Shown here in pieces: positions 4,155-51,770 of a DNA stretch of 64,000 nt. The notes beneath the pieces are model-generated. The model was not told the origin of the DNA. It ran no database searches and was given only the letters and a program-made list of their open reading frames with translations. Source of the stretch: Balanoglossus misakiensis (Eukaryota; Animalia; Hemichordata); assembly GCA_040954595.2 (NCBI GenBank), contig CM082577.2:13895903-13959902 (forward strand), in the 5' to 3' direction. The stretch's first letter is position 1. Every line of letters starts with the position of its first letter. The position numbers and the translations under genes were made by a program.

Positions 4155-4586
4155 CATTCTCACACTCCTGGCAGCTGGGAGTGTGGGATTGAGAGTGTGG
4201 AATTAATAAAATGTCACACTCTCAAGCACCTGGGATCGTATTTCTCACATAAGTTGGGGATTTTTTGTCCCATACGAGCTGCGGCTTGTGTGGGACAAAA
4301 TATCCCTGACGAATGTGAGAAATAGGATCCCACGCCGTTGATGTGTGACATTCTATTTCTCACACGACAAAAAATAGCCAAATTCGCATTAGAAACATTG
4401 AATACTTGACTGTAAATGTCGTCTCGTACATTGTAGTTTTCTGTCAATGTATTACACTTCGCGCAATTGGATAACATTTATCACCTGTTACTACAAAACC
4501 TTTTGTCATCCAATCAGCGCTCACGTCATATAGAGCTTTGGAGTGTGCGAGAGTTTGGGATAAATCGATCGCACACTCCCAGCAGC
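4155..4586. mobile_element. Non-autonomous Crypton-related element
   Basis: Degenerate copy of the hairpin at 10461-10605 (CCTGGGATCGTATTTCTCACA...GGGACAAAA...TGTGAGAAATA). Its left end matches the reverse complement of the Crypton right end (12697-12760). Its right part (CCAATCAG.GCTC.CGTCA, CACACTCCCAGC) matches 12645-12745. Confidence 0.8.
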
Positions 4587-4963
4587 ACTTGCACTTGTCA
4601 ATGATACTGGGCCAATTTCAATGATATCTCACTCCACATTGGCAGTGAGTGTATCATGGTCACTGTGTGTGCATGGCAAGCCGTGAATTGAACATCTTAC
4701 TCAACTCATTTTTTGGGGTTAAATGAATATTTCCCCACGTCAAATACCTGCGATTACAATATGCCCTCTGTGTATGTACACTGTATGTACATGTATGCGT
4801 ATTTATTTGTATATGTACAAGTATGTATGTGTGTAGGCAAGTAAGTGTGTGTTTTGGTTTGTGTCTATGTCTTTGTTCTCTACAAAGAACTTTAAATATG
4901 TATAAGATCTGTATTTGGTATAGAGGTGCATTATCACTTATCAGGTATATTTTCTCTTTCCAG

Positions 4964-8965: not shown

Positions 8966-10445
8966 GGTCTGGTTGCCAAAGCCATCTCAAAATTGATAAC
9001 CAGTGATTCAAATTGCCCATTTGACATCAAACCTTCAATATTCAGAAAAGATGTCAATTTTCTGTGATTTACAATTATTGTTTTCATAATGTACAGAAAA
9101 GTTTACATTGGATCACTTAATCATTCAGCCATTCATTTTCTTTGATTTTGAATATATCTAGTTTTGTTTACACTTCCCTGACTGGGTGCTTTACGATGAA
9201 ATATTCACTTGACGTCAGGGGTACCATGTGCAGATGTCCTCTACCTAGCTTGGAGTAGGAAATCTTGAGCATTCAGAAAAGAAATTCTCTGCATTCAGAA
9301 ATTTTTTTTCTCTGTCATTCAATTTTGATTATGAAAATATCTAATTTGCTTACACATGGTTCCATGACTGTGTGTTTTACGATACACGTTTTCATTGATT
9401 TGTTTCACAATATAATCTAATGTGGCTGTTGGTCCATATTGGATGGTATTGTGACGTGTTGTTTGCAGTGAGGTTTGATACAGCTCCCAGCAGATGCCCC
9501 TTTGTGTGAATTTCTTCACGTCGTCGCCAATTTGTCACTTTTGTGGGTTATTTGTTTGGTGTTATGATTTCGCCCCTCTAACTGTCGATTCAGTAGAGAC
9601 AGTGTCATTGACAATGGATTGCCATACATAACTTGACGAGGAGAGTCCATGGAAAATCAGTTTTATTCAAGAACTAGAATAATTGGTGACTTGGAAGACT
9701 AAATCTTAGAATTTGTAATAATAACTGTTGACCCTTTGATACAACGTGTCAGTTAAGAATTTGGAGTCGCTTACAGATATAAATTCAGAAAATGTGGACC
9801 ATGAAATTGAGAGTTTGTCCGTACAATGATTGGAAGTCTTTCATGTTCTAAACACATGCGCAAATTATAGAACATACGTAAGACAGTATGTTGTACGACA
9901 TCTTTGGAGAACATATAAACAGAGTATACTGCTTTGTATTGCCTTGTTAGCCTTTGTGTAAATTACCCTTGTGCTTCTTATACTTGTGTCAAACATTTTG
10001 CAACAGCCACACCCATAGTGGGTGTGTGGTTTGGGTGTCACTTCTTCTTTCATACTCCTATGGCCCATGTGTCCTGACTTCAATATTGCAGAATCTTGTC
10101 TTAGAAATGCGGGTTTATGAGTGGATCGAGCCATCGGCCCAGCTGTAATATAATATGCACCCTTGTTCACTTAGCATTGGTTTGAATTTGCAGATTATAA
10201 CTGCTGTCTTGAAATCTAGCAGTATTACTTGAGTGAGGTTAGCAGCATTGTGCTGAGCACACTTGTTCAGTAACTCTTAGAGTCTCATAAGTGAATTATA
10301 TTGCTCTGTAGTGGAATATTTCAGATTTCCCGCTCCAACAGAAAAAGAAGGTATTCAGACCATCACTATTTTTTCTGACTGAAGAGGTGAATGGCTGATC
10401 TGTAACAGACATGCTCTATCACTCTGCAGACTTCTGCGCCTATGC

Positions 10446-12760
10446 TTCTGGGATTAATAGAATCTCACACTCCCAAGGACCTGGGATCGTATTTCTCACA
10501 CGAGTTGGGGATTTTTTGTCCCACACGAGCCGCAGGCGAGTGCGGGACAAAAAATCCCCGACGAGTGTGAGAAATACGATCCCAGGTCCTTGGGAGTGTG
10601 AGATTATTTTTCTCACACGACCAGAAATTTGCGATATTAACGTTTTTATTTCCAATCGAAGAACAAAATCAATAAAATACCCACTGATCACTGCATGAAC
10701 GCTCATATATTGATCCGCCCCGCAAAACATAGTCCCCATTTCAACACAAGTATAACACCCATTCTACAAAACGTACTCATAACACATAAAATAGGTTAAT
10801 AAATATTTTAATTAACAATAACGTGTGCATCAAATAGATCGATGTCCATTGTACACTGAAAAGCAACCTGTGTCATTTCTCGAAATCGAAATTCTCAGAA
10901 TAGATCGAGATAACAATAACAAAGTCAACGGTCACATTGTACTAAATGTACATGTAGGTATACTACTGACTATTTTCACTTTCTGTGTCGGAATAAATCA
11001 CACACCTTCGTTTGCGTGGGGGTTCCTGAATGTTACAGGTAATATTGAATGTACCACCGGTTATAGTACATTTATCGAATAATGAAGAAGAGGTGGCAAC
11101 GTGAGAACTTGAGGAATTTTGTGTACATGACGTGGATATCTCGCTTGAACGGGATTGTTGAAGAGTCACGTAGGGTAATGCTGACGACGAGGGCTGAACT
11201 ACGCTGCTCGGGGGTTCACAACGAGATGTGTCTGTCAATATATGTGACATGGCATATTGCTGTTTATCAGATAACTTGCTGTAGTTATTGACTGACTGCA
11301 CGTTTCTATGGGCACTTTTCTGCATTATATGCGTTGGTGGCACGTTGTTGTCGTTCAGTTTCTGGAGCAAGTATTTCCTGGCACTTGTATTGGTGATGCG
11401 TTTTCCGCGACCAGATAATCCACTCTCTTCGGCCATGTTTTTCATTATTTGGGCAATCGTATTCGGGCCCATTGCTTGACGCTTGAACCAAACTATATCA
11501 GACGGCTTGGAATTTGTCCTGATGGCTAAGTAGAATGGAGTGTCTGGGCCCAGAAAATCAGCGTGTCGCTTTGATGCGTACAACTTGTAAAGAGAAACGG
11601 GGCATTTGTTTTTGTCATTGACGAACGAATACATTTGTGGCTTTACAGGGCGGACATCGCTCACATTTTCGCCAGTTCTAGTCTTAGTCTGGTGCTCAGT
11701 TGTCATTTCAATGAATTCTCTGCCATCAGCATCTCGTTTAAGTTTAACATCGCCCCAACACAACGACCTATGTTCTTTAACTGCCCTCATTCCAAAATGC
11801 AACATGTTGTTAAGCCAAAGTGTATTTATGACCGAATGAGGTGTATGGCCGCCGAGTTGCCCATCAGCATACAGCTTATTTACATCGTCATCAGTCAGGG
11901 TATCGGCTTTGAATGGTAGATTCCCCTTACCGTGTTTTCGGAGGTTTTTCTGTTTCGCTTTCAATTTTTCTCGTGAAGAGAAAAAATCGACACTTGTCAC
12001 CAACGATACTCCATATTTGGCCCAGCGGAGATGTCTTTCTAAACTACTAAACATCCCTTGTAGAGAGGATGGTTCGTAGTCAGAACCATCCTCCTTCCGA
12101 ACAACACACAGAAAATTTCCAACGAAGGGGTCGAGCTCGCTCGGCGGAATATCAGAAATGTCGCGATGTTCGCCAAGTTCGGTCAGGTACTGTTTGAATA
12201 GCGTTACATGATATTTAGTCTTTCGTACCGTGTCACTATTCTGCTGATCGTCTACGAAATGGTCAATATCGGTAGACGACAATGCAGCAAATCTAGAATG
12301 TTTCGGGGTCGACGAACCTTCAGCTAATGGTACGGGCGGTGCCGCATCTGGCTCGAACTCAGCGGCGAGCTTCACTGCTGAAACCTCAACTTCAGCTCCA
12401 GACAAGACATCCATCAGGACAAACTGGCGATATGTTCCCAATGGCCTAATTATGCGGGATATCTGGAAAATACGGCCGTTTTTCGCGAGTCTGTCACCAA
12501 CCACGTACACCATTATCCGAAGGTAACACAAATTGCACAACTGTCGTCTGCACATGACCTGATCACATTGTAGTTCCGGTTCGTGTACAACACGTCACAC
12601 AATTGGATGATATTTGCTCGTTCTGAGGGGTACGAATATCGTTATCCAATCAGAGCTCGCGTCAGATAACAGGTGTCTGTGTGCGCATTAACACAGAGTG
12701 TGGGATCGATTTGATCCCACACTCTCTATCCCACACTCCCAGCGGCCATGAGTGTGAGAA
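10446..12760 (-). mobile_element. Crypton (tyrosine-recombinase DNA transposon)
   Basis: Single YR ORF flanked by CACACTC/GAGTGTG-rich palindromic ends; related non-autonomous copy at 4155-4586. Exact termini uncertain. Confidence 0.85.
10963..12513 (-). CDS. Crypton tyrosine recombinase (DUF3504 / KCTD1-ZMYM-related family)
   Basis: Intact ORF; start taken at ATG 12513 (the ORF track starts at 12555). Motifs VRKEDGSDYEPSSL, HFGMRAVKEHRSLCWGD, TKTRTG, CPVSLYKLY, ITNTSARK, HRNVQSVNNYS. Confidence 0.9.
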   Translation of the reverse strand: MVYVVGDRLAKNGRIFQISRIIRPLGTYRQFVLMDVLSGAEVEVSAVKLAAEFEPDAAPPVPLAEGSSTPKHSRFAALSSTDIDHFVDDQQNSDTVRKTKYHVTLFKQYLTELGEHRDISDIPPSELDPFVGNFLCVVRKEDGSDYEPSSLQGMFSSLERHLRWAKYGVSLVTSVDFFSSREKLKAKQKNLRKHGKGNLPFKADTLTDDDVNKLYADGQLGGHTPHSVINTLWLNNMLHFGMRAVKEHRSLCWGDVKLKRDADGREFIEMTTEHQTKTRTGENVSDVRPVKPQMYSFVNDKNKCPVSLYKLYASKRHADFLGPDTPFYLAIRTNSKPSDIVWFKRQAMGPNTIAQIMKNMAEESGLSGRGKRITNTSARKYLLQKLNDNNVPPTHIMQKSAHRNVQSVNNYSKLSDKQQYAMSHILTDTSRCEPPSSVVQPSSSALPYVTLQQSRSSEISTSCTQNSSSSHVATSSSLFDKCTITGGTFNITCNIQEPPRKRRCVIYSDTESENSQ

Positions 12761-14269
12761 ACAGCTATCTCACATATACCGTACCCCTATTCATTGGAGT
12801 CAAGTTTCTAGCATGCCGTTTGGGGATGCTGCGATCATGGATCACCACAGGGTTCCACCTGGAGAATAGTTAAACTTGGCATTGACAGCTCACAAGGCAG
12901 AAATGTGTACTACAAATGGATTTCTCATTGGGTACCCATTGGCTACCCATATGCGATGATGGCCCCTATACATTTAAGCAGTTGTTAGAAATCCTACTTC
13001 CTTGCTGTCATGGCATGCTATTCTTTCCACATTACAAACTCTCATTTTATATAACGTTATATACATGAACATGTGCCTGTACATATGGAGGTGCAGACGT
13101 CAACACTTCCACCTGTGTTCGTTATAAGCTAGTATTACAGCCTCTGATCATTATAGTGATCAACTTCCTTGTGTCATTACTAATGGGACACACCATTTAC
13201 TGGTATTGTCATTGATATCTCTAATATTGTCAGCTCTGTCAAGTTATAGGCAGCTTCATCTTTCTGAGACCTCTGGTCATCTGAACTTGATGACAACCGT
13301 TCACCTAAATCGGCAAGTTTTAATGGGATCTTATAGTCATTCAGCATATCTCAGAGCCAAGAGTACCACACAGTCCCCATACCTAGGATTATCATAGTGC
13401 ATGTTGACACATTCAATAGTCTATAATTAAGGATATCCTACCCAGTGACTTGACTCGTTATCTAGCAATTCGTCTGGTGGCCTTGAATCAAAACCAGTTC
13501 TTGGGTTTGATGACTGAGCTAACACCAAAACATATCACCAGAACGCCATTGCTATTCTGAATATTTCTCAGGCCAAATCTCTGAAGTGTAAAAAAAACTT
13601 CCATCAAGGCTGTTCAGTGTTTCCTCAGCCAATTCATTCGCAGTTTGTAATCTGCCTGTTGAATATGTACATGTATGATATCAGTTTTTTTCTCTTTGCT
13701 ATTGTATATGGTTCTTGGTGCGAGTTGAGATGGTATTAACAGCTGTGTCTTTTCTCTATTTGCGGAGGCCTCTCTGGCTGATTGGCTTATTTATGATGCA
13801 CACAATTTGAAATAGTGTCATGGGAACCAAGAAAAATACTTCGCCAAGAGGATGGGTCAGGTCAGATCACCCTATTCCTGAAAACTACTTTGAGCTAGAC
13901 CATCAACTCATGCTTTCAACGTTCAGCTATATCTTATAGCAGGTGCCCAGATCCACATGTTTCTCACCATGTGATGAATATTTGTCCAGCCATGAATCAT
14001 TGCTCCTCAGGAATTATGAATAGTCAGGCCATTATAGCAAGAGTGTACCGTAGTGGAGAGTGTATTGTACTTCACCAAAGCATATACTGGAGATCATGCC
14101 AGCTGAGGTGGGTGGCATAATCACACCTGGAGATCAATTTGCTTTATGCAGTTTGTTAGACTCAGTTCTTTGTGAAATCACAAAGCCCTCCTACTTTGGG
14201 AGTACTGGATGCAGGCTATTAGTAAGTATGACACTGATGTCCACATGCATCTACATGCAGTGCTTGTGT

Positions 14270-17193: not shown

Positions 17194-20100
17194 TGTGACC
17201 CACAGCAGGTTAGAAAAGGGGACATATCACATTTTCGGGGGACAATATATCAGGACAGGATTCTCCCTGGGAAAAATCATAGAGTCAGGGCTAATTTCCA
17301 TAAAATTTACATAATCATAGCCTCTTTTGGACATCACTATGCCCCCTTAACATCGATATAAATTATTTTGTATTATGGCTTTATCAATACCAGTGAATTT
17401 TGTGACGTCATAGCTGTACATTATTACTGATAATGTATCGTGTTATGACGTGTACGCGCAACACACTCAAGAACCAGCCAGACTGAATAATGGAGCTTTC
17501 AAACAATGCGAACATATTAAGGACTAAAAAAGAAATGCAAACATTCACAGAATAAATACAATGTACTGCGATATTTATTAATTTCAAATCTGACCTCGAC
17601 TGGCGATTTGTTGATTTTTTTCTTCCTAATGCGGCACTACATGTCATCTGCTCTTGAATCACGCGCAGTCAACATGGCTCGCTCACGCACGTAAAGCAAA
17701 CCTCTCCATGATGCTGGATTTGACATTCATTTACCATACATACTGTGTATCATGTACCAAGCAGTCATGTCAACGAAGCTAGACGTAAAAAGTTATGCCG
17801 CAATTGTCACTGTCATGTTGTCTACGCGGTATGGAGGGTTGATCGAGGGAGTGTTTGTTTATGTATTGCAACCTTCTGAGCGCCCGTATAGTGAACTTTC
17901 CTGAGGTCGCAAACAAATGCAAATATTGCCCAAGTCCACACCAAGATTTCACAAAAAATTGAAATTTTTCAGATATATTTCAGCAGAACCCATTATTTAT
18001 TTCCTGATGTTTGAATATGATACTAGAAATGTACAGAACATGGATTGACCGCAATCAGCTGATCTTTGGTTTATGCCATTCCTCTGTTTTTGTATCTGTG
18101 ACCGAGTTTGCCCGTTTTTTGGGGTGAAAAAAGGATCCACATTCAGGATTAGATTAAAGGCACATGAGCTGCAACTGGATGAAAATTTTAAGTTTTAAAT
18201 AATCCCATTATGTGTATTAAATGATATTTCATAATAGTATATCAAGATCACTTATTTATGACAAAATGGCCAAAAGTTAAAGAAAATTGAAAATTCCTGC
18301 AATATTGTGATCAAAAATGAAAATGTAATGTCTCAGCGGAGTACATTTACTTCCATAATTGCAGTGGATGAGGTCATGCTTTGTTTATGAAATTTCATAG
18401 TCAGAAATGCAATGTTTTCCTTGTTCTTGCATTTTTCCATGGTGGCGGCCATATTCCTTTGCGGCAAAGTTTACTGGCCCTGGGCTGCTGTTAATTTTAT
18501 AAGCCTGTGCAGACGCGCAGACACATGGCATGACCTCCAACAAATGTTGCTTCATCATTTGTCAAGTTTAGCTAAGTTGTTACAATGCGCGTACGCTCAG
18601 TGCGTTGCTTGTGTTACTAGGCTATTGATGCTATTTACAGGACGCCTGTCTGTAGATAACTTGTGCACTGAATGAAATGGGCAGCACATTGCTCTTGACA
18701 GCGTGCAGAGCTGCGTTGCTTCTAGGGTGATTCAAGCTGTGGAAGGTGTGAAATCACTCAGTTGTGTTCACTAAATTATCAAAACTTGAAAGGGAGTAGC
18801 AAGTTACAGTGAAAGCAAAGGTGGATGCACAGCAAAAGTATGGGAGGTGACAATCTGTCATATTGTTGTTCACTCAGTAAGAATGTGTCACAGTGACCCA
18901 TGAAGATTTATTTTGTTGTGACAATCCAATATTTATTGCATCAAATGTCGCAAGGCCGTACGCAAGCTGAAACACTTTATATTGTTTTATTTTATTTCTA
19001 TCATTAGTGATTTTAGATAGTATTAGTGTTTTAAACACAGAGAGAGCACCTATTTTGGATTCTAAGCCACCCATTTGTTTTTCCAACTTATTATCTGAAA
19101 CTTCCTCCTTTTTATTAAAATTTTACAAAGCAAAGCTGATAGTTCTGATAGACAGACGCAAACTACTTGTATGATAAAATTCAATACTGTTACCAAGTGA
19201 AGAAATGTCTTCCTTGTGTCTAGAAATCACATATTATCACAGTCTACTGGTTAGGACCTTGCAGGCCTACAGATATTCGGATGACTGCTTTCAGGACAGT
19301 TACACTTGAACATTGCAGCCTTCTATTGCAATAACTAACCTTTAACCCCAATCTAACCTCTAACATTAACCTCTAACCACTAACCTAAATAGCAGGCAGG
19401 AATGTCCACGTTTTCTGTCCTTGAAGTTGATACCCTCTGAATATTTGGCAAAAGTTAGTTTACCTTTATGCTTAAACAAAAGTACCAATTTGTATGACTG
19501 CCTACCAAATATGCTCTCTTTCAGTGTTTCAGCTAGCGTGCAGCCTTGCGACATTCGACGCAATAAATGTTGGATTGTCGCAACAAAATAATCTTTATGG
19601 GTCACTGTGACGCATTCTGACTGAGTGAGCAACAAATGACTGATTGTCACCTCCCGTACTTTTGCTTTGCGTCTGCCTTTGCTTTTACTGTAACTTTCTC
19701 CTCCCTTTCAATTCTTGACAATTAGTGAACACAACTGAGTGATTTCACACCTTCCACGGCTTGAATCACCCAAGAAGCAACGCAGCTCTGCACACTGACA
19801 AGAGCAGTGCGCTGCCATTTCATTCAGTGCACAAGTTATCTACAGACAGGCGTCCTGTAAATAGCATCAATAGCCTAGTAACACAAGCAATGCTCTGAGC
19901 CTATGCGCATTGTAACAACTTAGCTAAACTTGACAAATGATGTAGCAACATTTGTTGGAGGTCATGCCATGTGTCTGCACGTCTGCACAGGCTTATAAAA
20001 TTAACAGCAGCCGAGGGCCGGTAATAATTGTGCAGGGCAGGTAAATTTCTTAGTCAACTGCCCTGATTTATGCCAACTTTGATAAGGGAAACTTTTAAAT

Positions 20101-21123
20101 ACTTAGCACTATTTGACTTTGTTTAGAATATGGCTGGGTATGATTGCAAAAAAATTAGTATCAAAACAATTAATCTGATCCTGAATGTCGATCATTTTTC
20201 CCCAAAAAAAACAATACACGATAACATTTCTTCACCAATGGCAGTATATCATAATTAACACAAAATCTGAGATGTCTTAGGATATGTCCAATTTCTAAAA
20301 ATACATACATGTAGTAGGATGTAAAAGACAACTTGCACTGAAAACTTGCAGTGTTTCATTGAGGACACAGGTGAATTAGGCGTTCTATTCTGGGAAACAA
20401 TCAAACAAGTAAATAAACAAACAAACAAAATAACGTCATGATAAACAACGCGGTATCTTGAATTAAGCCACCCGCTCGTGCAATAGAGCAGCTGACACAA
20501 GAAGTGACTTGTGTCAAAGGTCCCATCCGTATGCTACTTGCTAGAAAATTGGTATATAGCAGGACGGTGTCCAACTCCCACTTGAAAACTGCTCGACACT
20601 GTTGAATATTCACCGTTTTTTAGCCTCTAAATGTCTGCCATCTTCAAAATTTCTACCCCATTTTAAAACATCAATAAACAGGCTATCATATCAGCATCGA
20701 TTTATCTGTCTCTCTTACCACTGGTTGTTGCGAGCACGTAAAAAAATATGACAATATCACAGTTTTTGAGGCGCATAGCAAGTCGTGGGAACATCAGGGC
20801 GTTTTATTGGAGCGGACTTCGTAACCCCAGGTCACCCAAGATACAAATTTCAAATACTTTCACTAGTAATAGTATTTCACTAGGCCTTCTTTACACTGCG
20901 TATAAAAAAGACAATATTCTTTGTTAGTAAGTACGATGTGCCAATGTCAGCATACTTGATAAGTAATGGTCGCGGTAAAATTTGTCCAAAAGAAGCTATG
21001 ATTATGCAAATTGTATGGAAATTAGCCCCGACTCTATGATTTTTCCCAGGGAGAGCCCTGTCCTGAATTGTCCCCCGAAAATGTGATCTAGCTGTCCCCC
21101 TTTCTAACCTGCTGCGGGTCACA
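17194..21123. mobile_element. Foldback-like element with ~140-bp outer inverted arms
   Basis: 17194-17335 is the reverse complement of ~20980-21123 (TGTGACCC.CAGCAGGTTAGAAA.GGGGACA...GGGAAAAATCATAGAGTC.GGGCTAATTTCCATA). Confidence 0.7.
18472..20023. mobile_element. Non-autonomous element with ~500-bp terminal inverted repeats
   Basis: 18472-18977 aligns in reverse complement with 19522-20023; termini TAC.GGCCC / GGGCCGGTA; no clear TSD. Confidence 0.85.
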
Positions 21124-31393: not shown

Positions 31394-34300
31394 TCATAAG
31401 TCCTTGATACAATTCTGGATCAGTTGTCGGGCAGCGATGGCTGTTTTCCGTTTTGGACGAACACTTCGATGGTCGTCTGGTTGCGTTGTGTCTTCGCGAT
31501 CCACTCCTCCTTGAGTGAACGCAGGAACGTCGTGTTCAGGACGATCGTCCGTAGTTTCCACACAGTTGGGTGACTGCACCTCCAGCGGGTAAAGTTTCTG
31601 GATTGGTCGATTGGTTTTACCCGATGATGTCTTGATTTCTGTAGATCTTACCAGACCATCGTTCCCGTAATAAAGTTTGAGAACTTTGGCCATTCTCCAT
31701 TTCATTCGTTTGTCCACATCACTGTGTACAAGTACTATGTCACCAACCTGAATAGAATTGGTTTTTGTACCAGTGGCAGTCAGTTGATGTCGCTCTCTGA
31801 GGGCGGTGAGGTATTCGGTAGACCATCTCTTCCAAAAGTCAGACAGAAGATGACACAAATGACGGTGTCGCTCATTGAGTGTGTTGTGGTTTCCATATGA
31901 TGGATCATTGTATTCATCTAGGTCCACAGGCAAGTTCGGTAGAGGCGTTAATGGTCGACCGTTCAGTAGATGTGACGGAGTCAAGGCAACCGGGTCATCC
32001 TCAGTTGTAGACACATAGGTCAAAGGTCGATCATTGAGCGTCCCTTCAATCTCCGCGAGAAGAGTGCGTAGTTCTTCGAACGTGATAAACGAGCGACCTA
32101 GTACTTTTTTGATCGCGGTCTTCGTCAGGCCAATTAAACGTTCCCAAAACCCACCATACCAGGGTGCGCGTTTTGGTATGAAAGTCCAAGTGACGCGATG
32201 TTCAGAAAGTTCTTTCTTGACTTCAGCTGACTCGAATAAATCACGGAGTTCGTCAGCAGCAGAAAGATATGTTGAAGCATTGTCCGATAACATTTTCGTA
32301 GGTAGAGATCGCCGTGCTGCGAAACGTCGAAATGCCATCATAAAGGAGTGAGTGCTCAGGTCTGGCACAAGTTCAAGATGGACTGCACGTGTTACTGCGC
32401 ATGTAAACAAGCACACGTAACATTTCATTTCTTTCTTGTCTGTTGTTTTGACGAATAAAGCTCCTGTGAAATCAACTCCCGTTACCGTGAACGGTGGCAC
32501 CATGTTTACACGATAGTCCGGTAATGGTGCAGTTAATGGCTTTTGATACGGTTTGCCATCAACACGTCGACAAGTTACACATTTGCGCGCGATAGACTTC
32601 ACTGCGCGTCGAATCTGCGGTATCCAGTAGCGTTGTCGTAGTGACGTGATGACGGATTGAGTTCCACCGTGTTTGAGTCGGATATGATCATGTCGAATAA
32701 TCAGATCGGTAAAATGATGACCATTGGGCAGTAGGATGGGGAACTTGGTAGCGAAATTTACCGGTGCGTTATGTATGCGTCCCCCGCAGCGTAGAATTTC
32801 GTCATCATCAATGAAAAGTTTCAGCTGTCTTACTAACGGACCGTATTTCTTGTTTTGACCACGTAGCGAATTTATGGTATCGCGGTATGTGTCGCTCTGG
32901 ATTTCTTTGATCCATATGATTTCTGATTCATTGATCTCGTCAGCTGTGATCGGTCCGCGTGGTACATCGCTTCTGTGTTTCAGTATAGACACAAAGCGGC
33001 GAACATATGCAGTAATTCGAAGGAGTTTGTTTAGAGAACTGTAGTTTGATGCGTCAATAGCATGTTGAATTCCAACGGGAATCTCGCTCGGTGCGACAAT
33101 TTCTGACGGCGAATTTATTTGTGGCGACTCGCGTGTGTACGGTTCATTGTGCGGCAAGTTGCAATGAACGGCGTAGTCATCATTGACAGCAGGCAATACA
33201 GAACGTACCCCTTCGGAGGGTAAACTAGCTAGGTGGTGGACTGAAGTGTCGTTTTCCTCAGTCGTGACCTCACCAAAGTTCGCGATTGTATCAGTTTGTT
33301 CCTCGAACAATGGGGAGTCAAACAGATGGCAGATAGGACAACTATCTTTCGTTGGCAACCACTCTGGTCCTTTCCACCAGAGTTCAGACTTGTTCAGCTC
33401 TTCAGCAGAAATTCCGCGTGTAAGAAGATCAGCGGGATTGTAGGCGGTTGGACAGTATTTGTAGTCTTGTGGGAAATCTTTTATTTCCTTCACTCTGTTT
33501 GCTGTGAAGATAGGCAGCTTTTTATCGCTATTTATCCAATGTAGTACGATCTGCGAATCTGACCAAAGAACGCGTTTTGTGAAGTTGTATTTTGAAGATA
33601 GCGCGTCGCACACGAATTTACTCAGTCGAGTGGCGATAACAGCGGCCACCAGCTCCAATCTGGGCAAAGTCAGTGTCTTGTTGTTGATTGGAGCCACGCG
33701 GTTTTTAGCCATGACAAGTGCGGTTTCGTTATCTTTCTTTAGGTAAACAACAGCACCGTAAGCTTTCATTGAAGCGTCAGCGAAAACGTGTAGTTCGCAG
33801 TCGGTATTGACTGGCTTGGCAGTCTCAGGAAAATATTGCCGGTTCAATGCAGTATTGGCGCTTTGATTCAAATTATCAGCGATTGTACACCATGCGTTTG
33901 ACATGTTGTCCTCGAGGGGCTCATCCCAATGTACATCGGCTTTCCATATTTCTTGGATGAGTAGTTTTGCTTTGACATGCACGGGTGAAAGTAGACCCAG
34001 CGGGTCATACAGTGACGCTGTATGACTGACCACGTCGCGTTTAGTGGGTAGCACGTTTGGGGATTTATCAGCGATATCTTTGTACGTGAGCGTATCATTT
34101 TCTGTGTTCCATTGCATTCCGAGAGTATTTACACGCGGTGACGGATTTAGTTTGTTGTCATTCTCAGCAAGTGTACGCACAGTCATTGTTCGATGACCAC
34201 GAACGCAAGTTGAAACCACAAGAATCCATGAGTTTGTTGGATTCCGCGTAGTATGTTTTGGCTTCAGTTTCAGAAGCGCATCCACTGATTACATCATCAA

Positions 34301-37054
34301 CGTAAATATCTCGCTTCAAGTCCGAGGCGGCGGGAATTTCCGTATTAGCTTCTAGCTGCGTCTTTACAACGGCGTTGAGTATGAATGGGCTACAAACCGC
34401 TCCGAATAAAACCGATTTGAACTCAGGAACTGATATGTGACGAATTCACTTTCGGTGTCACTCGCGTTTGAAAGCCACAAGAACTTTGTGAACTTTCTAT
34501 CGTGTGGTTCAAGTCGTATTTGAAGGAATGCCTTCTCGATATCGCTAGCGATTGCGATCGGATTTGCTCTGAAGCGCAGTAGAATGGACGTTAAATCGTT
34601 CAATAACGGTGGCCCTGTTAACAAACAATCGTTCAGGCTTGGAGACGTGTTGTCGCCTTTGCAACTACAATCGTAAACGATACGAATGGGTGTGGTCGCG
34701 GAGTCTTTTTTGACGTGTCTATGCGGCAGGTAGTGACCACCTTCAGGGTTGTTGTTTTCGACGCGTTCAATGAAACCCTGTTTTTCTTGATCAGCGATGA
34801 CTTTATCGTATATAGTTAGAATGTCCGAAGGAAGTCTGCGTATCATTGCGCGTGTTCTATTACTAGCAACACGAAAGTTAGTAGGTAGCGGATCATGGTC
34901 CGGTTTCCATGGTAACTTGGCGACGAAGTGATTGTCCTCGCGACGAAGATGCGTATCTCTATATGCTTCGAATTCGGCTTCTTTGGTGAGCTCGGTGTCG
35001 GTTCGCGATACGTTGTCTTTTATGCCGATGGACTCTAAGTCCCAATATGAAGTTATCGCGTTGTCATTCAAAGTGTCCGTAATGACATGGAATACGTTCG
35101 CAGCAGTAGTAGATTTCCCTTTCAGTTTTGGGCCGGAGAGTAAGTAGCCGAATGGCGAACTAACGGCGGTAGGACCTTGACCGCGGATAATTTCGTTTCC
35201 TACAAAACTCCAGTAATAATCCGCGCCTATGAGAATATCAATATCGTAGCACCCGTCGTTCGAGACAGGGTGGGCCAAACGGAGGCCCTGCAAGTACGGT
35301 AATGTCAGCAGATACGGATCCACATGATTTTTGAGGCCCGCGGAAATTTCGGGAATCAGAAGCGCGTCAATTGGTAATTTGTTACCAGCTATGGTGTGGA
35401 GGTCGAAAGTCCCTTTCTTCATGGAACGCATGCGTGTGTGTTTATTTCCGAAGGCGGCGAGATTGAGCGATTCTGAGCGTGAAATATTGGCGCGAACGCG
35501 ATCGGCGAAACTTTCTGTTACGAATGTACGGTTCGCCCCTTCATCGAAAAGTACTGTGGCGGTGACGACAGTTCCGTTGTTTGCGGAGACTGGGATTTTA
35601 GCAGTTTTCAATAGTACCGGACCGGTCAGTGCACTACTCCCGGATGAGAAGTGCACCTGTGTATTTTCTGACATTGATGAACGTCGTTCGCTGTCATTTG
35701 CAGAATTGTTCACTTTGTGTCCCTTGTTTCGTTCAGTTTGACGGCCACTTTCACTGCGGGACTCGGTTTGCTTTCCGGCTCTATTGTTGCGAACAAAGTC
35801 AGTTTGATGTAGCGAAGTATGATGTTTGCGTTGACAGTGTCTGCACGAGTATTTGGAAATGCATTTTCCGACTACATGTTTTCCCAGACAGTTATAGCAA
35901 AGTTTGTCTCGGCGTACAATCTCCATACGTGACTTAGCATCAGATACAACTGTGCAATCGTTTGGTGAATGAGTTCCTTTGCAGTAGACGCAGGGACGTT
36001 GCTGATTTGGTGACCGAGAAAATCTCTGCCCTCGAGTCGTAGAATTGGAATGAAAGGTGGCGATGGTTGCCGGGTGGCGATGGACATCACTGTCGTTGCC
36101 TACAGATCTGGCCCTTATTTCACATAGGACGGCTTTGCGGAGATCGGGCAAGTCCCAGGGAACTTCTCCGCGAGAACGAGCCAGTATTTGCTGTACCTCT
36201 GTGGGTAGTTTTTCCAGTATCATGGGTATAAGTAGTTTCCCATATGAAGTTTCTTTCTCTCCCAGAGCGTCTAGACCGCGTACGTGGGATTCGTGTGTAT
36301 CGTAGAATTGACGTAGACTTGTTACATCAGCAGTCGGGGTGGGAAGTTCCCACAGAGCTTTCATATGAGCGCTGATGATCGTTTGCGTTTGACCGTATCT
36401 TTCCTTCAAAATTGCTATAGCGTTGGCATAATTTGCCTCGGTAAGTTCAAGTCCTTCAATGGAGCGTACTGCCTCGTCCGTTACGAGACTTCGTAGGTAC
36501 GTGAACTTTTGAACGTTAGAAAGTGAACTGTCCTGATGAACAGATGCGTTGAATGTATCCATGAAGCTTACCCATTTCAGTGTGTTCCCTGCGAAAGTTT
36601 GGAGCTCGAGTTTGGGTAGTTGAACCGTTTTTCGTTGGGCGACGACTGGCCGCGTAGATTCGGCCGTAGAAACAGCTGCGTTTCGAATTGTAGTGAAATC
36701 ATGTTGATGAGTTTCGATAAACTGTCCGATGAGTTCTTTTCTCTCTGAAATTGTAACTTCGTAGTCGCCTGTTTCTTCGACATCTCTATCGGTTTCGGGA
36801 TCTGGAGTGTTGTTGAAAATCTGTTCGTCGATGGCTGCGAGTCGCGAATATCTCGTCAGGACGAGAGCGTAGGTTGCTTTGATTGTAGCGTAGACTTGTG
36901 ACTTATCGGCCTCATCGTTTGAATCGTTGTATTGCGCGATTTCTCCTTCTGCTTTGTTGAAAGCCTTCGTAAGTTGCGATCGGCACACTGTTCTTCGTTT
37001 CTTGAGATCGGGAAGAGGGTTTTGAACCGCTGGTTGTTCGGCGTTGATAGACAT
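31394..37054 (-). pseudogene. BEL/Pao Gag-Pol polyprotein (Gag, Cys-His knuckles, protease, RT, RNase H, integrase), two frameshifts
   Basis: ATG at 37054. Motifs LPKLELQTFAG, CVYC..H..C, CYNCLGKH..C, LFDEGA, RIVYDCS, DIEKAFLQI, YVDD (third frame, 34293-34304), LHVFADAS, PRLEL, GVDFTG, SDNAS, PWYGGFWERL. Frameshifts near 34425 and 34185. Confidence 0.95.
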
Positions 37055-37067
37055 CACGGAATCCGAT

Positions 37068-37085
37068 ATCCTGGTCTCGGCACCA
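37068..37085 (-). other. BEL primer-binding site, tRNA-His-like
   Basis: TGGTGCCGAGACCAGGAT a few bases inside the 5' LTR; one mismatch to the complement of the invertebrate tRNA-His 3' end as I recall it. Confidence 0.7.
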
Positions 37086-37361
37086 AAATAATGTGGGGGT
37101 GAATTTATTGAGCAAAGCTCTTTATATCGGACTTCCGTGAAACCACGAACTGGTACAGAACAGTACTGTACCGTGGCCGAAATCGACACACGGTGTAGGT
37201 TTCAAACCTACACTGTCCCTTTGCTACAAAATGCGCGCGTACGGTGTAGGTTTCAAACCTACACTGTCCCTTTGGTGAAACGAAAAAAGCAAGTGTAGGT
37301 TTCAAGTAGTGTCCACAATGTTGTGATCAATTTACATGAGAACCTTTTAATTTCTGCACAG

Positions 37362-37555
37362 GTGGTTCCAACTGTCTACAGAGATTACCCTGCAATACAG
37401 ATGAATTGGAAGATCATGCAAGTGTACCTAATTATGTGGGAGATTGTCAAATTACTGACTATTTGAATACCATCATGACTGAAGAACTGCCACCTAAAAG
37501 CCCTGCAGAAGCTAAAAGGTTGTATAGGACATTATTGGATATTCTGTTGAACTAA
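37362..37555 (+). pseudogene. Probable last exon of the IS3EU-like transposase
   Basis: Acceptor TTTCTGCACAG; open frame GSNCLQRLP...GDCQITDYLNTIMTEELPPKSPAEAKRLYRTLLDILLN*, resembling C-termini of eukaryotic IS3-like integrase proteins (recall only). Confidence 0.5.
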
Positions 37556-39132
37556 GTGCAACTTTTGACAATGTACAGTACTGCTGAACATGTATTATGT
37601 TTGACTGGCTTACTAATTGAGCATCTTTGAAAGGCATCATTTTTCTGACCATTCATTTCAAAATTCGACCTACATTTTTTGCGACTGATAGATTGTAATT
37701 TTGGGCAAGAACCTGACTAAAATGGCAGCCTGAACATGAACTTTGCAGGCGAGTGTATTTAAAGATATTTTGCCAGCTTTCCATACATAATTTCAGGCAT
37801 GGAAATTCCTGGCGACTGTGACACAACAGATCTTTGTAAATCTGTACACAGACAGAATGCAGAGGGTGTTCTTGTATCTGAACTTTATGGAAAATATAAT
37901 GTAAATATCTGTTGTATTATATAGTTATAGTCATGATGAGTTTATTCATTTGCATTTTGAGTAATAAGTGTAAGAATACAGACACATGAAATTTACTGGT
38001 ACAATGTTCAGAAACACAATTTAGTAATGCACTTAGAACCATTAACTTTGACTACTATAATTTATTGAATACACTTCATCTTTTGCTAATTAAATTCTAC
38101 AACACAACTACAGTGTATGTGACTGTTTATTTCTATTTCTATTTATGCGAGGGACAAAAAATAAGTTTACTCAAGAAAGAAGTTCAGCTTAACAAACTTT
38201 TATGTCATGTTTGGTGTTACATTCAAACAAGCCTTGAGGAAGGCATATAGTTTCTAGATATAGAATAAATTGTCAATAGTAGCAATGTTGGAATGTATCA
38301 CAATGAAAATTGACATGCAAACATAAATGTCATAGGCACTGAACTAAGTAATATCAACTTTAATGACTGAGTGATGGATTTGGACATGGAGAATTTATCA
38401 ATATACGCCTTGCATAAGGTATAGTCCCTGTAGTTACTAGTACCGGTAGTTACTCGAGGCTCAACCTGTTTTTTTTGTGTTTTTTTCTCTTCATTTCATA
38501 GCTTAAGTGGGATATCATTATCAAACTAGTCTTGGTAGCTGCAGTTCAATGAATGTAAACAGCTGGACTACCACTTGAATTATTTTGTAGGCCAAATAGA
38601 CTTTTGAGTAAGTAGTCTGTTGATACGGGACTACTTGCAATTTTGAGCCCTACGTGTACATGAACACAAGTCGTTGAAGATGTAATGTGATATAATGTTA
38701 GCGAATAAGTCCTGTAGCATAGAGTGTGGAAAATGGATTAACCTGTTTACTTTGCCATGGACATTAGTCAAATTTATAACATGTAAACAGTTGTCAAATC
38801 ACAGCCAATCATAATGCATCTTTTCCAGTCTTGTTCATCGAAAAAGTACAGTCCATCTTGGAAACTTGTCATCATCACAGTCAATTAACCAATCAAATAC
38901 CTTCGAATATGTACATGTACCCAGTCCATAAGAAGCAACATGCACTTTGAATGGTTTGTTTCCTAGGATGTACATTGTTAATACTTTAACAAAGGTGGTT
39001 ATAGAAGTTACAAGACAGTAGAAAAGTTGAAATTACAATCATCATCTAAAAGTCTTTTTTCTTTACAAATGTTAACAAGTTCACTGACATACATGTAGTT
39101 CAAGTAACAGCTATGATCAAGTCTGAGCCATC

Positions 39133-39380
39133 TTACACTTGGCCAAAGCCTGCACTGTTAAGAATGCCAAATTCCATAATCTCTTTGAACTTTATGTAGG
39201 ATTTTACAACAGGTATTCTTAGTATGTTTCCACATGTATTTGCAATTGGAAATAGCTTTTCATCAGCTTGAGCCCTACGAAAATCCAAAGTGGGGGATGG
39301 CCTAAATCCAAGTGGAGGTTCCTTGTCCAATCCAGTGGCAAATACTACTATGTCCTTCAATGTCACATCTGCCTCGCCCT
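39133..39380 (-). CDS. Terminal exon of a HECT E3 ubiquitin ligase (G2E3-like C-lobe)
   Basis: Acceptor TTTTTCCATTTGTATAG; LKDIVVFATG..EPPLGF.PSPTLDF...FPIANTCGNILRIP...GFGQV* with the catalytic Cys motif and C-terminal Phe. Confidence 0.85.
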
Positions 39381-39509
39381 CTATACAAATGGAAAAATAG
39401 GGAAATACAGGTGCACTAATTAATATCAGCTTTTTTGAAAGTCATTGGTATACTTTCACACGCAATTTAAAGTATAATAACTATGACTTAATGAGTGATT
39501 GGATCTGCA

Positions 39510-39552
<43 letters not shown>

Positions 39553-39632
39553 ATGTATGTATGTATGTATGTATGTATGTATGTATGTATGTATGTATGT
39601 ATGTATGTATGTATGTGTGTATGTATGTATGC

Positions 39633-39665
<33 letters not shown>

Positions 39666-39676
39666 TGTGTGTATGT
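39510..39676. repeat. (TG)n/(TATG)n microsatellite
   Basis: Direct read. Confidence 0.95.
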
Positions 39677-40339
39677 ACCGGTATGAATGTATTATATTAA
39701 TTATGTCGAGGTTTGCATATATTGAAAATTCGGGCTACAGTCAATCTAGTGATTTTAGTGGATTGAGGCTTTCAACAGTTACAAGCAACCGAACACATAC
39801 TGTTCCTTTACAAGTAAGTACCGTGGACCTCGCCACAAAACAAAAACAAAAACAAAAACAAACCAACAAACAAACAAATAACAAGACAATGTCTACATAT
39901 AACACGCGAAAACATCAAATATCTTTATAATCACTCACCTCCTTACCCAGGCGAGACTCCGTTTACCTGCGGCTGTTCGTTTGTTCGCAAAAACTCATAC
40001 TCCAGTACTGTACTTCCGGTGGACACTACTTGAAACCTACACTTGCTTTTTTCGTTTCACCAAAGGGACAGTGTAGGTTTGAAACCTACACCGTACGCGC
40101 GCATTTTGTAGCAAAGGGCAGTGTAGGTTTGAAACCTACACCGTACGCGCGCATTTTGTAGCAAAGGGACAGTGTAGGTTTGAAACCTACACAGTGTGTC
40201 GATTTCGGCCACGGTAGTACTGCGATGCGTGCGACTCGCAGTTTTCCAAAAACAACACTGAACTCGAAATTCCAGAATGTCAGCTCCAAAAATAGTCCAT
40301 CGGACGCGGGAAACCCATGAGCACCGATTGGCTCAAACC

Positions 40340-40743
40340 TAAAGTAATACTCGCCCTACTGGGGGGAGAATACTACTCGCGGTTAGCACCGGCTGTGTAT
40401 ATATTACCTACACAAAGCAGTCGATGCTGTTACTAACTATGACTAAAGACTTAACTATCTTAAACGCTATATAAAGGTGAGACAGAACTATACGAGAAAG
40501 CTTATAAGGATATTACTTACGTCTTGATCAGTATCAGGTACAATTCGGTCTATCGGATCTCCAGCTCGTCGGAACGGCGTGCTTTCCCCAGGTCCGCCCA
40601 CACTGCTGTTGGCCTCATCCATTGGTGTTGCCCCTGTCAGTCAGATCTCCGTGCTCCGCCTTCCACGGTCCTGGCTGGCTGTCGCCCTGGGCAACCGACT
40701 CCGGCTGCCAGTCATCCGGGGGTCCAAATGTAATTCCACTACA
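40340..40743 (-). repeat. Gypsy 3' LTR
   Basis: Only one substitution seen versus 51367-51770 (AACCGACT vs AACCTACT). Confidence 0.97.
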
Positions 40744-41046
40744 CTCGTCCTTCTTTTCTTTTTGGGAGATCCTCCCTGGGGCTATATGTCGGGTAATGGG
40801 AAGCCTGAAACGGTGGGGTTCCCTGGAAACGTTCGTCGGGCTGGTCCTGAAAATAAAAAGATCTCGGGTGGCTTGCCCGCGGAAGCGGGCACCAGAATAC
40901 TCTCTGATATTAGATTCCAGCCAGGGTGGCCGGATTGGGTTTTGTGGTTGTTTGGCATGTTTTTCCTCCGCCAGAAGCGGACGTTTGGGTAGGTTCTTCC
41001 TCCGTCAGTGACGGATATGTTTTGTTGACGGGTTTGCTTTGTTTCT

Positions 41047-43248
41047 TCAGGCCTGGTACAGACGGCGGGCGTTTTCGGCCGTCTGCGCCAACAGCTGGCG
41101 AGTCGAGGTATCTCGCAGTCTGGCGACCTCTAGTGCGACGTCCCCAAGGAAGGCAGGCGTATTCATACTCTGGGACTCCCACACGCGTCTGCTGGGCGAC
41201 TCGGTCTCCACTAAGATCCGGTCCTCCGGGATAGCCTGCATGGCTTCAATCTGTCGCTCATCAAACTGGCGGACGGCGGCCGAGAACCCAAAATAGGTCT
41301 CGGGGAAGTACCGCCGCCAGTCTCCCACGGTCTCCCTACATCCTCGGAAATCCTGGAGGTGGATCCGCTGGCTCTCGTCGCAGTGCCTGGTCATGGTTAG
41401 TAGTGTCCAGGCTGCCGTGTGTCGGTCATACCTGTCGTTGGAGGTTCCCCGGGCGGTGATGACTACCGGCCTCCTTCCCCGGTTCATAGTCAACAGGTCT
41501 TCGAAGACCCTATCTTGGTCTTCCCAGGTGGAGGGGTCTTCCGTCCGGTCGAGTCCAATGTCCCCTAGTGCGGCCACGTCTGGGCGTCTCAGGAGGTTAC
41601 CGAGGGTCTGGCGTTGATCCTTGGTCAGGTTTGGTGCCACTCGTGGGTTAACTCCCAGGGCTATTGGAAAATCTTGTTCCTCCGGCAGCGGGTCCGGGTA
41701 CCGATCCGGCTCAGAGAATACTTGTAGCCCTCCGAGGAGCCGGATTCGATAGTCTGGAAGGACACCAACATCGAAGTCAGTGAGGTCTTGTGGATTTGTT
41801 GGAGCGTCCTCCACTCTACATGTCTCGGCGCAAGCCTGGGGGTAGAAACATGCGTCTATTCCCCCGGGTATGGATGGGTCCCGGGCTGCTGTTTCGGATG
41901 GCTGTGTCCGGGTTGCTGCAGGTCTCCGGGGCGGCTGGATCCTCCAGAATTCGTCTTGCCGTGCTCGTGATACCCATCTAAGCAGCACGCTCAGCACGCG
42001 CCAGTGGATGAGGATTGCTGGCGTGGTGGGGGGGTTCAGCGGGAACTTGTTGGGTACTTCCCACCCCTGAAACACACATAGACGCTTCATCATAACGATG
42101 CTCTCGGGTGAGCACAGGGATTCCGATGGGATTTTTCCGGGTCCACCCCTACGAATAAACAGATCCAGCAGGTCGGGTATCTCTCTCCCGGGACCACATA
42201 GCCAGTAGGTCAACTTCTCTAAAGCCTCCACCGCGTCCCGCTCGCGGAATACCTGTGGCCTCTCAGCAAACAGTTCGGGAAGATGACGGTGGAATACATG
42301 CTTTTTCAACTTCCGTGTTGACGCCCGGCATCCCGGGAATGGACATGGAGAGGGGCCATACGAGAAGCGTGGACCAGGGGGTGGGGAGTTTTTTCGGGTC
42401 GGCCCGGTGCTCCTCCATCGGTGTTCGGTCTGTCTGGGCGGTTCCGGCGCTGGATACCGGATAGGTGAACGACGCCTGGGGCTGAGGTCTCCCCAGCGCA
42501 AATGGGATGGTCGTTCGCGGGAAGGCGGGCGGTCCCGCCTCTCCTCTCTAGCACGACCCGGTCGAGGCGACCGGGTTGGGGATCTGGACCTAGTGGGGAA
42601 TCCAAGAAATTCCCGGAGATCCGAGGGGATATTGATCTCCCCCATCTCCAACATCTCCTCCGACGTTATAGGTCGGATCGGTAGCTGCAGCGGCAGCGTC
42701 TCATGGCGTGGGGGTGGTGGCTCCTGTAGAAATGGCCTGCTACCTTCTGCTCTTGGGGGTGGTTCTGGCCCCTCCAACACCTCCATTGCCTGGTCTTCGT
42801 CGCCACCAAGCACCTGTCTCTCCTGCTGTGGGTCCGGAAAGATGCTCAGGGTTTCTTCCTGGTCGTCAGCTGCGGTGGTGGTTCTGGGGAGCTCTCGCAT
42901 AGACAGACTGCCGACGAACCCTCCCCGTACTCGGCCTAGGTTGAACTCCCGAGGTACTGTGGTTTTCGGGACGGTGGGGCGACTCCTCATGGCTTCGTCG
43001 GGCGTGGGCAGATGGGTGTTAACCTTCTCCTCCCCGTAGATCCGGATGGCCTCCTCCCGGGTGATGGACATACATCCCACGTCCCCAATCACGGCGGCCA
43101 CCTGAAAGTGCTCGCGGAGCATATCGAACATCGTTGTCTCGTCCACGCCGAGGTCTCTCAACCGGGGGATCACACTGATGGGGTCCAAGAGTTTCCCCTT
43201 GCCACATCTGAAACGGATGTCCTCCAGTTGACGTTGATTTGAATCCAT
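41047..43248 (-). CDS. Gypsy ORF3: Pro/Arg-rich region, C2H2-like finger, C-terminal TatD-fold domain (probably inactive)
   Basis: Intact ORF from ATG 43248. CPFPGC..12..HVFHRH; TatD-like motifs LGVNP, ALGDIGLDRT, RPVVITARG, IHLQDFRG, FGFS, IPEDRILVETESP, NTPAFLGDVA, TAENARRLY. Confidence 0.85.
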   Translation of the reverse strand: MDSNQRQLEDIRFRCGKGKLLDPISVIPRLRDLGVDETTMFDMLREHFQVAAVIGDVGCMSITREEAIRIYGEEKVNTHLPTPDEAMRSRPTVPKTTVPREFNLGRVRGGFVGSLSMRELPRTTTAADDQEETLSIFPDPQQERQVLGGDEDQAMEVLEGPEPPPRAEGSRPFLQEPPPPRHETLPLQLPIRPITSEEMLEMGEINIPSDLREFLGFPTRSRSPTRSPRPGRAREERRDRPPSRERPSHLRWGDLSPRRRSPIRYPAPEPPRQTEHRWRSTGPTRKNSPPPGPRFSYGPSPCPFPGCRASTRKLKKHVFHRHLPELFAERPQVFRERDAVEALEKLTYWLCGPGREIPDLLDLFIRRGGPGKIPSESLCSPESIVMMKRLCVFQGWEVPNKFPLNPPTTPAILIHWRVLSVLLRWVSRARQDEFWRIQPPRRPAATRTQPSETAARDPSIPGGIDACFYPQACAETCRVEDAPTNPQDLTDFDVGVLPDYRIRLLGGLQVFSEPDRYPDPLPEEQDFPIALGVNPRVAPNLTKDQRQTLGNLLRRPDVAALGDIGLDRTEDPSTWEDQDRVFEDLLTMNRGRRPVVITARGTSNDRYDRHTAAWTLLTMTRHCDESQRIHLQDFRGCRETVGDWRRYFPETYFGFSAAVRQFDERQIEAMQAIPEDRILVETESPSRRVWESQSMNTPAFLGDVALEVARLRDTSTRQLLAQTAENARRLYQA

Positions 43249-43249
43249 T

Positions 43250-43293
43250 CTGGGGGGGGGCAAAAAGAAAAGAAAGAAAATTAACGGTTAGTG
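43250..43293 (-). promoter_or_regulatory. Splice acceptor for ORF3 (branch point, polypyrimidine tract, CAG)
   Basis: Minus strand CACTAAC (43293-43287), then a ~30-nt T/C tract, then CAG|A ATG. Confidence 0.75.
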
Positions 43294-43358
43294 GGTCCTC
43301 GTCGGTAACGAGTCATAGTCCTACCCGATGGCAATTTCCCCTTTTTCCCTCTGTTCCC

Positions 43359-51366: not shown

Positions 51367-51770
51367 TAAAGTAATACTCGCCCTACTGGGGGGAGAATAC
51401 TACTCGCGGTTAGCACCGGCTGTGTATATATTACCTACACAAAGCAGTCGATGCTGTTACTAACTATGACTAAAGACTTAACTATCTTAAACGCTATATA
51501 AAGGTGAGACAGAACTATACGAGAAAGCTTATAAGGATATTACTTACGTCTTGATCAGTATCAGGTACAATTCGGTCTATCGGATCTCCAGCTCGTCGGA
51601 ACGGCGTGCTTTCCCCAGGTCCGCCCACACTGCTGTTGGCCTCATCCATTGGTGTTGCCCCTGTCAGTCAGATCTCCGTGCTCCGCCTTCCACGGTCCTG
51701 GCTGGCTGTCGCCCTGGGCAACCTACTCCGGCTGCCAGTCATCCGGGGGTCCAAATGTAATTCCACTACA
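51367..51770 (-). repeat. Gypsy 5' LTR
   Basis: Adjacent to the PBS; termini TG...TA in element orientation. Confidence 0.97.

Follow-up and report, generated by a model that had tools for sequence, protein, structure and literature searches.

A conserved one-strand hairpin and an internal complement of both ends in an animal CryptonA element

The element, its gene and its copies

We analysed a stretch of 64,000 nucleotides of contig CM082577.2 from the hemichordate Balanoglossus misakiensis (assembly GCA_040954595.2, positions 13,895,903 to 13,959,902), which we call the window. It contains a CryptonA element with a single recombinase gene and a long hairpin beside one end. The element, its gene, its target and a second copy lie as follows:

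10455..12760, minus strand: whole CryptonA element, about 2306 bp, ends placed to within 1 nt either way, without target-site duplication
10963..12513, minus strand: tyrosine recombinase ORF, uninterrupted, 516 aa from ATG, predicted Cre-like fold
10455..10460, plus strand: terminal 6-nt spacer, which goes with the hairpin end; in other families, too, this 6-nt tail comes after the hairpin
12695..12725, no strand assigned: small perfect inverted repeat of the half-site motif with 13-bp arms, upstream of the gene
12752..12760, plus strand: far terminus A (half-site motif)
10444..10454, plus strand: target, left half, like terminus A, as is the consensus of other copies' flanks
12761..12775, plus strand: target, right half, comprising its own spacer and a half-site-like motif; these letters lie between the sides of the empty-site joints
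4198..4375, plus strand: second, decayed, gene-less copy of the hairpin end (84%), with both GA blocks altered on one side

The minus-strand ORF matches DUF3504 (E 6e-25) and Phage_integrase (E 4e-9), which bears out the name Crypton given to the element in an earlier note made from the sequence alone. It is the only long ORF in 10455-12760, and the element encodes no reverse transcriptase, RNase H or DDE transposase. The recombinase residues R242, K276, R378, H401 and Y410 are all present; the first histidine of the motif is replaced by Thr375, a threonine shared with one relative (P0002), while most relatives have histidine. We found 237 relatives at E<=1e-20, and among the 120 of these that were listed the closest is a Ptychodera flava protein (77% identical), most others being 37-48% identical. 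The best matches to the predicted structure (mean pLDDT 82) are QRICH1 and Cre, and IntI ranks 45th, so the predicted protein has no evident integron-like adaptation; a sequence search of solved structures returned QRICH1 as its sole match. Viral contigs yielded neither a recombinase relative nor a match to the pattern described below. A CCAAT box lies upstream of the gene at 12646-12650, and in many other loci the box forms part of the loop of another hairpin, a shorter one without GA/GA blocks (for example L005 743-827, L008 683-763, L030 94-157 and L052 302-373).

The limits of the element were placed with contigs assembled from two runs of one sample, possibly the window's own source. Loose ends of contigs with unrelated flanks cluster at 10449-10455 and behind 12761, and the consensus before 10455 terminates in GAGAA in both runs. 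Contigs that connect 10454 to 12782 and 10437 to 12781 represent an empty site without a duplication. Together with the flanks and the family's ends, these joints show that the element has neither terminal inverted repeats nor long direct repeats, and the joints and the flank consensus show that its insertion target resembles its own half-sites. Signs of mobility in the contigs are the empty site, the many different flanks, and joints that mark internal deletions. When contig depths are summed, the hairpin has about 50,000-360,000 and the gene mostly 140-600; depth is not copy number, but its excess over the ends suggests that most copies of the element are gene-less. In the 15 of 25 joints listed, we found no 12760-to-10455 junction of the kind expected from the circular intermediates that the earlier note had proposed to look for; the one joint that goes back, 12725 to 10484 in a single contig, lies away from the termini.

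The second copy at 4198..4375 seems to have entered the small inverted repeat of another copy in reverse orientation, which suggests that the element targets itself at half-site-like sequences. A similar opposite-strand joint, 10474/12714, occurs in one contig. Over window positions 4157-4600, the spacer of the second copy is again on the hairpin side, and the repeat of the other copy lies near its 5' end.

The window holds several other repeats. A long nested, foldback-like inverted repeat occupies 17250-21066, with arms of several hundred bases that are 86-96% complementary. Frames of a BEL/Pao-type retrotransposon (Peptidase_A17, DUF5641, DUF1759) lie at 31394-37201, and at their upstream end an element with inverted ends of about 100 bp, built from 50-bp units, spans 37169-40216. 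An LTR retrotransposon at 40340-51666 has identical 300-bp repeats, gag, and a pol with a C-terminal PHD finger. It also has an additional ORF of 746 aa, which encodes a TatD DNase domain, and, upstream, a frame that encodes a helix-hairpin-helix motif. A 907-aa frame with a reverse transcriptase domain at 56311-59034 probably belongs to a non-LTR element.

A hairpin with tandem G·A blocks

The hairpin starts 6 nt inside the end of the element, as placed by the pile-up of loose ends at 10449-10455, and is thus subterminal, as the earlier note had it. Its parts are:

10461..10531, plus strand: outer arm, beginning with a 10-nt motif that resembles a recombinase half-site (B' on the gene-sense strand)
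10502..10503, plus strand: outer tandem GA, opposite GA 10563-10564, 28 pairs from the apex
10527..10528, plus strand: inner tandem GA, opposite GA 10538-10539
10532..10534, plus strand: GCA triloop of GNA type, closed by a C·G pair
10535..10605, plus strand: inner arm (B), the complement of the hairpin-side terminus

The earlier note had described this feature as a near-perfect inverted repeat with CGAG/CGAG blocks and a C-GCA-G triloop, and our coordinates and pairing agree: the 145-bp hairpin (10461..10605) pairs 65 of 71 positions between its arms, it contains a perfect run of 41 bp, and its GCA loop is closed by C10531·G10535. Both G·A/A·G blocks have the form 5'-CGAG/5'-CGAG, and the two other positions outside Watson-Crick pairing are T·G at 10506/10560 and A·C at 10523/10543. 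A chance origin is rejected by a folding z-score of about -19, with 0 of 200 shuffles folding as well on either strand. We also rejected a site for resolving hairpin telomeres, in that the centre of the hairpin is its least perfect part.

The same note had argued that the hairpin looks designed to fold on one strand. The identity of the mismatches and the published chemistry support this claim: pyrimidine-GA-purine is the context of the sheared tandem pairs defined by NMR (PMC10085684), and of 64 triloops tested only GNA makes a stable DNA mini-hairpin (PMC13037366). Computed energies hardly separate the strands. The nearest-neighbour values for the two strands are -78.7 and -77.8 kcal/mol, less than 1 kcal/mol apart, and for the central 31 nt the calculation favours the strand opposite to the G·A strand. 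It is thus the mismatch identity and the published chemistry, and not these energies, that argue for a strand preference; the nearest-neighbour model probably lacks terms for sheared pairs and GNA loops.

We next compared copies within the window's family, in two larger runs of about 700 contigs each aligned over 10300-10800. The GA blocks are kept among these contigs; random variation of the mismatch positions among young copies, which the earlier note named as one outcome against its reading, was not seen. Other letters reach 1.7% and 1.1% of depth at G10502, at most 0.2% at A10503 and at most 0.1% at G10538; at G10527, which is in a CpG, 13-14% of depth has G>A. No GA position is among the changes at 30% of depth or more, with 14 weaker changes lying below those listed. 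The A·C mismatch is private to the window copy, since T at 10543, which gives A·T, makes up more than 99% of depth. One stem pair, 10489/10577, is changed on both sides (G10489A at 43-52% and C10577T at 61% of depth), the phase of the two changes not being linked. Two observations go against a simple picture of a strand-specific fold. The family majority has a T·T at 10513/10553 and a C·A at 10516/10550, both absent from the window copy, and the C·A is the worse mismatch on the G·A strand; and in the decayed copy at 4198-4375 one GA of each block is changed.

To compare hairpins across families, we used an alignment of 53 proteins to collect loci (numbered with the prefix L). Genome contigs supplied 3, and of 236 in metagenome contigs we kept the best 80; together with the window these form 28 groups at 80% nucleotide identity. 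Three of the animal-type Crypton loci (L001, L002 and L003) lie in contigs filed as bacterial genomes, which suggests that these contain host DNA. Hairpins were sought within 700 bp of the 3' side of the gene, ungapped and with Watson-Crick pairs only. A hairpin was found in 20 of the 40 loci with at least 650 bp downstream; the other 20 comprise 7 with remnants of the motif and 13 with none.

In 29 hairpins, 56 of the 76 two-by-two loops are TC/TC on the gene-sense strand, which is GA/GA on the antisense strand, and 4 are GA/GA. We then dropped six hairpins: those of L016, L022, L062 and L064 and one from L050 are foreign, and the other from L050 is the locus's own with its apex deleted. This left 56 of 72 loops TC/TC and 3 GA/GA, all three in L028; with one copy per group the counts are 36 and 0. 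Random decay of a perfect palindrome is rejected, as random double changes would give 0.7% TC/TC where 78% was observed. All 56 TC/TC loops, which read GA/GA on the antisense strand, have the pyrimidine-GA-purine context on both antisense arms. GA/GA lies on the strand opposite the gene in 11/11 families with a scorable hairpin, ten of them besides the window's with different stem sequences, and these ten further support the strand-specific polarity first read from the window. The GA blocks occupy exact mirror positions, at an apex distance that varies between families. They cluster close to the apex, and a further cluster is frequent 26-32 pairs away from it. Eight of the 11 families have GCA, GTA or GAA as the loop, the other 3 have a pyrimidine-rich one, and one GNA loop is closed by G·C. 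Against this reading, energies favour the G·A strand in just 17 of 22 hairpins, and by small margins.

The apex is flipped in 2 of 23 readable loci (L028 and L065), with the outer blocks unflipped, which fits an inversion after insertion. Rolling-hairpin replication of the parvovirus type is rejected, since about equal numbers of flip and flop forms would be expected. A role of the G·A blocks in breaking up the palindrome in duplex DNA is a weak explanation, because the window copy retains its 41-bp perfect run. The families are related by ancestry, and the counts are thus a measure of long conservation and not of independent origins. By comparison of sequences, the hairpin is conserved and strand-specific, and we are highly confident that a one-strand fold has been under selection.

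Other hairpins and palindromes occur in these loci. Short gene-less elements with a hairpin of similar design lie inside or beside autonomous copies (L005 61-143, L016 3691-3804, L032 2667-2771, L043 5667-5771, L062 1551-1666, and L034 near 2252, where the element seems to begin directly after the 6-nt tail). An insertion that splits the recombinase gene of L002 carries a hairpin at 1239-1321 with a CGAG/CGAG block, an apex like that of the window and a TCT loop. Near-perfect palindromes without GA blocks at L001 2450-2567, L064 5215-5329 and L050 2041-2134, one of which interrupts the recombinase frame of L001, are probably unrelated miniature elements.

An internal complement of the far terminus and a one-sided spacer

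Two further features, absent from the earlier note, are the strongest clues to mechanism. The first is a complement of the far end located just inside the hairpin, and the second is the spacer, which occurs almost always at one end only. The internal parts are:

10610..10618, plus strand: A', internal complement of the far terminus 12752-12760, 10-bp perfect match
10606..10609, plus strand: internal spacer, 3-4 nt, opposite the 6-nt terminal spacer in the folded form

On the gene-sense strand the order is terminus A, the gene, A', about 3 nt, the hairpin from B to B', and a 6-nt tail. In the window the match of A' is marginal (p 0.055 alone against shuffles). Of the 21 loci tested across families, 11 loci belonging to 8 families have a significant match between A' and the far terminus (p<=0.005), with A' again about 3 nt before the hairpin. 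Another 9 loci gave no significant match; in 4 of these the hairpin scored was a foreign one. In 8/8 families the best partner for the terminus is the family's own A'. A' and the inner arm B together make up an internal region complementary to both ends of the element. When we joined the ends in silico, the G·A strand formed one long stem through the junction in the window and in 5/5 loci. By eye the junction opposes a 6-nt spacer to about 3 nt, part of which the folding program pairs in 4 of the 6. As A' is complementary to the other end, one folded strand can, as judged from its complementarity, hold both ends together.

The 6-nt tail was counted in 35 rows, 6 of which were dropped as internal matches. 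It is one of two near-identical hexamers in 22 of the remaining 29 hairpin-side ends and within one mismatch of them in 26. The same tail lies exactly before the other terminus in 1 of 23, with two more in similar (AT)n runs; the direct repeat of 4-6 bp at both termini that marks the CryptonF and CryptonS types is thus not seen here. The loose ends of the window's family are consistent with a spacer at the hairpin end. A spacer tail almost always at the hairpin end implies that crossovers happen, with few exceptions, at one particular edge of the spacer. In tyrosine recombination the cut is made at the spacer's 5' edge. Since the 5' edge in question is on the G·A strand, this usual position places the predicted cut on the strand that carries the G·A blocks, and both chemistry and footprint name the same strand. 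The footprint alone is no proof of a folded substrate, because SE elements leave a similar one by copying out one strand.

A candidate single-strand mechanism and its alternatives

We propose that the CryptonA element likely moves as a folded single strand, which its recombinase would excise and insert by one strand exchange. The G·A strand, opposite the gene, would be exposed, for example at a replication fork, and the hairpin would fold. A' would then capture A, bringing the termini into one duplex with two half-sites and an uneven bubble of about 6 versus 3 nt. The recombinase would cut the G·A strand only, at the 5' edge of the 6-nt spacer, and a single-stranded circle would be released with its junction held by the same fold. 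One strand exchange could insert this circle into a duplex target that resembles the half-sites, and host replication would complete the insertion, as with CTX attP(+) and integron attC. In this scheme the G·A blocks and the GNA loop would let only one strand fold well, and so fix the choice of strand. We infer the step in which the recombinase acts on the folded strand, and what we doubt most is that the fold serves the recombinase rather than another step.

If another step uses it, the recombinase could act on ordinary duplex ends, with one strand copied out and the hairpin reserved for later: protection of the circle, priming of the second strand or recruitment of a host factor. Vibrio SE elements circularise one strand and have their 6-bp spacer at one end (PMC9345347), GNA mini-hairpins occur at priming signals on single strands (PMC13037366), the predicted fold of the recombinase is Cre-like, and as duplex DNA the joined ends make an ordinary site of two arms around a 6-7 bp spacer. 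This account leaves unexplained why A' lies about 3 nt from the base of the hairpin and tracks the far terminus in 8/8 families, and we consider it rather unlikely. The standing model for Cryptons (PMC13565253, PMC3212892) is a double-stranded circle, in which the inverted repeat would be an array of duplex binding sites or a cruciform, with its YTCR motifs as directional sites for protein binding. Half-site motifs do recur through the hairpin and at 12695-12725, and long perfect runs, of which the window has one of 41 bp, could be extruded to give a cruciform. A duplex site, however, gives no reason for the mirror placement of the blocks, for 56/56 sheared-pair contexts, for a GNA loop whose middle base is free, or for the use of one strand in 11/11 families; after two exchanges across unlike spacers, either end would be left with the spacer, an outcome seldom seen here. 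We judge this model improbable.

The fold could also be an RNA structure on an antisense or read-through transcript, as tandem GA pairs are stable in RNA too. Against this, the G·A strand does not have the sense of the mRNA, the element lacks a reverse transcriptase and has no Rfam match at E<=1, and published accounts treat the C-GNA-G triloop as a motif of DNA (PMC13037366, PMC10085684). An RNA fold would also leave the position of the cut unexplained, and we regard it as very improbable.

The folded single strand that we favour has its closest parallels in bacteria. CTX attP(+), used by XerC/XerD (PMC4246890), likewise has two inverted sites with unequal spacers on a strand that folds, 90 bp apart in attP(+) and about 90-150 nt apart over both systems, and one strand exchange, which in our element is inferred only. 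The CryptonA element differs in that it encodes its own recombinase instead of using host Xer at dif, inserts at many sites, lies in a eukaryotic chromosome and has no phage genes, and its strand is apparently chosen by sheared G·A pairs and a GNA loop. With integron attC sites, used by IntI (PMC4792948), it shares a palindrome that is kept in shape and not in sequence, with built-in imperfections that favour one strand. The window has neither an attI platform nor a cassette array, the imperfections are tandem G·A blocks where attC has extrahelical bases, and the protein is nearer to Cre than to IntI. The route of both bacterial systems is one exchange followed by replication (PMC4792948, PMC4246890). 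Vibrio SE elements (PMC9345347) share the tyrosine recombinase and a 6-bp spacer at one fixed end; they differ in having four core genes, and that account, as available to us, mentions no long folded end. DIRS elements (PMC8969392, PMC6681497), which also encode a tyrosine recombinase, have an internal 3' region whose first part complements the 5' start and whose second part complements the 3' end, the same order as in our element. Unlike DIRS, the window element has no reverse transcriptase, RNase H or long ITRs, and the second half of its internal region is a 70-bp hairpin arm.

The element otherwise agrees with the described CryptonA of animals (PMC3212892; Eulor5/6, PMC5753468; fungal Glomhopper, PMC13465315) in its single DUF3504 recombinase gene, the absence of a TSD and of classical TIRs or direct repeats, and the much greater abundance of gene-less copies. 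Animal Cryptons have been reported to lack terminal repeats (PMC3212892), and human Eulor5/6 are classed as Crypton relics (PMC5753468). The portions of these papers available to us describe none of three features of the window element: the hairpin on one strand, the internal region complementary to both ends and the spacer at a single end. The words "hairpin" and "palindrom" do not occur in the main text of PMC3212892 or PMC13465315. We did not find the layout of hairpin and internal splint in the literature searched; Repbase, Dfam notes, subscription papers, figures and supplements may describe palindromes. The earlier note's statement that no such mechanism is established for Cryptons agrees with a 2026 review, in which Crypton transposition is described as undemonstrated by experiment and a double-stranded circle is assumed (PMC13565253).

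What we report is a known group of transposons with an end structure that we did not find in print and a single-strand mechanism that can be tested. The layout provides exact substrates, a predicted strand and a predicted cut, all of which can be tested with one small protein and short oligonucleotides, and it gives a rule for locating the ends of elements that have been described as having no terminal repeats. We see an even chance that animal CryptonA elements as a group are eukaryotic single-strand transposons of the tyrosine recombinase type, in which an internal splint joins the ends and strand choice depends on sheared G·A pairs and GNA loops. On this view the internal complementary region of DIRS would descend from the splint or correspond to it. 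If true, eukaryotes would have a case of tyrosine recombination on folded single-stranded DNA, sheared G·A pairs and GNA loops would have a use in nature that has been kept while the recombinases diverged to only about 40% identity, and Cryptons would be structurally linked to DIRS retrotransposons.
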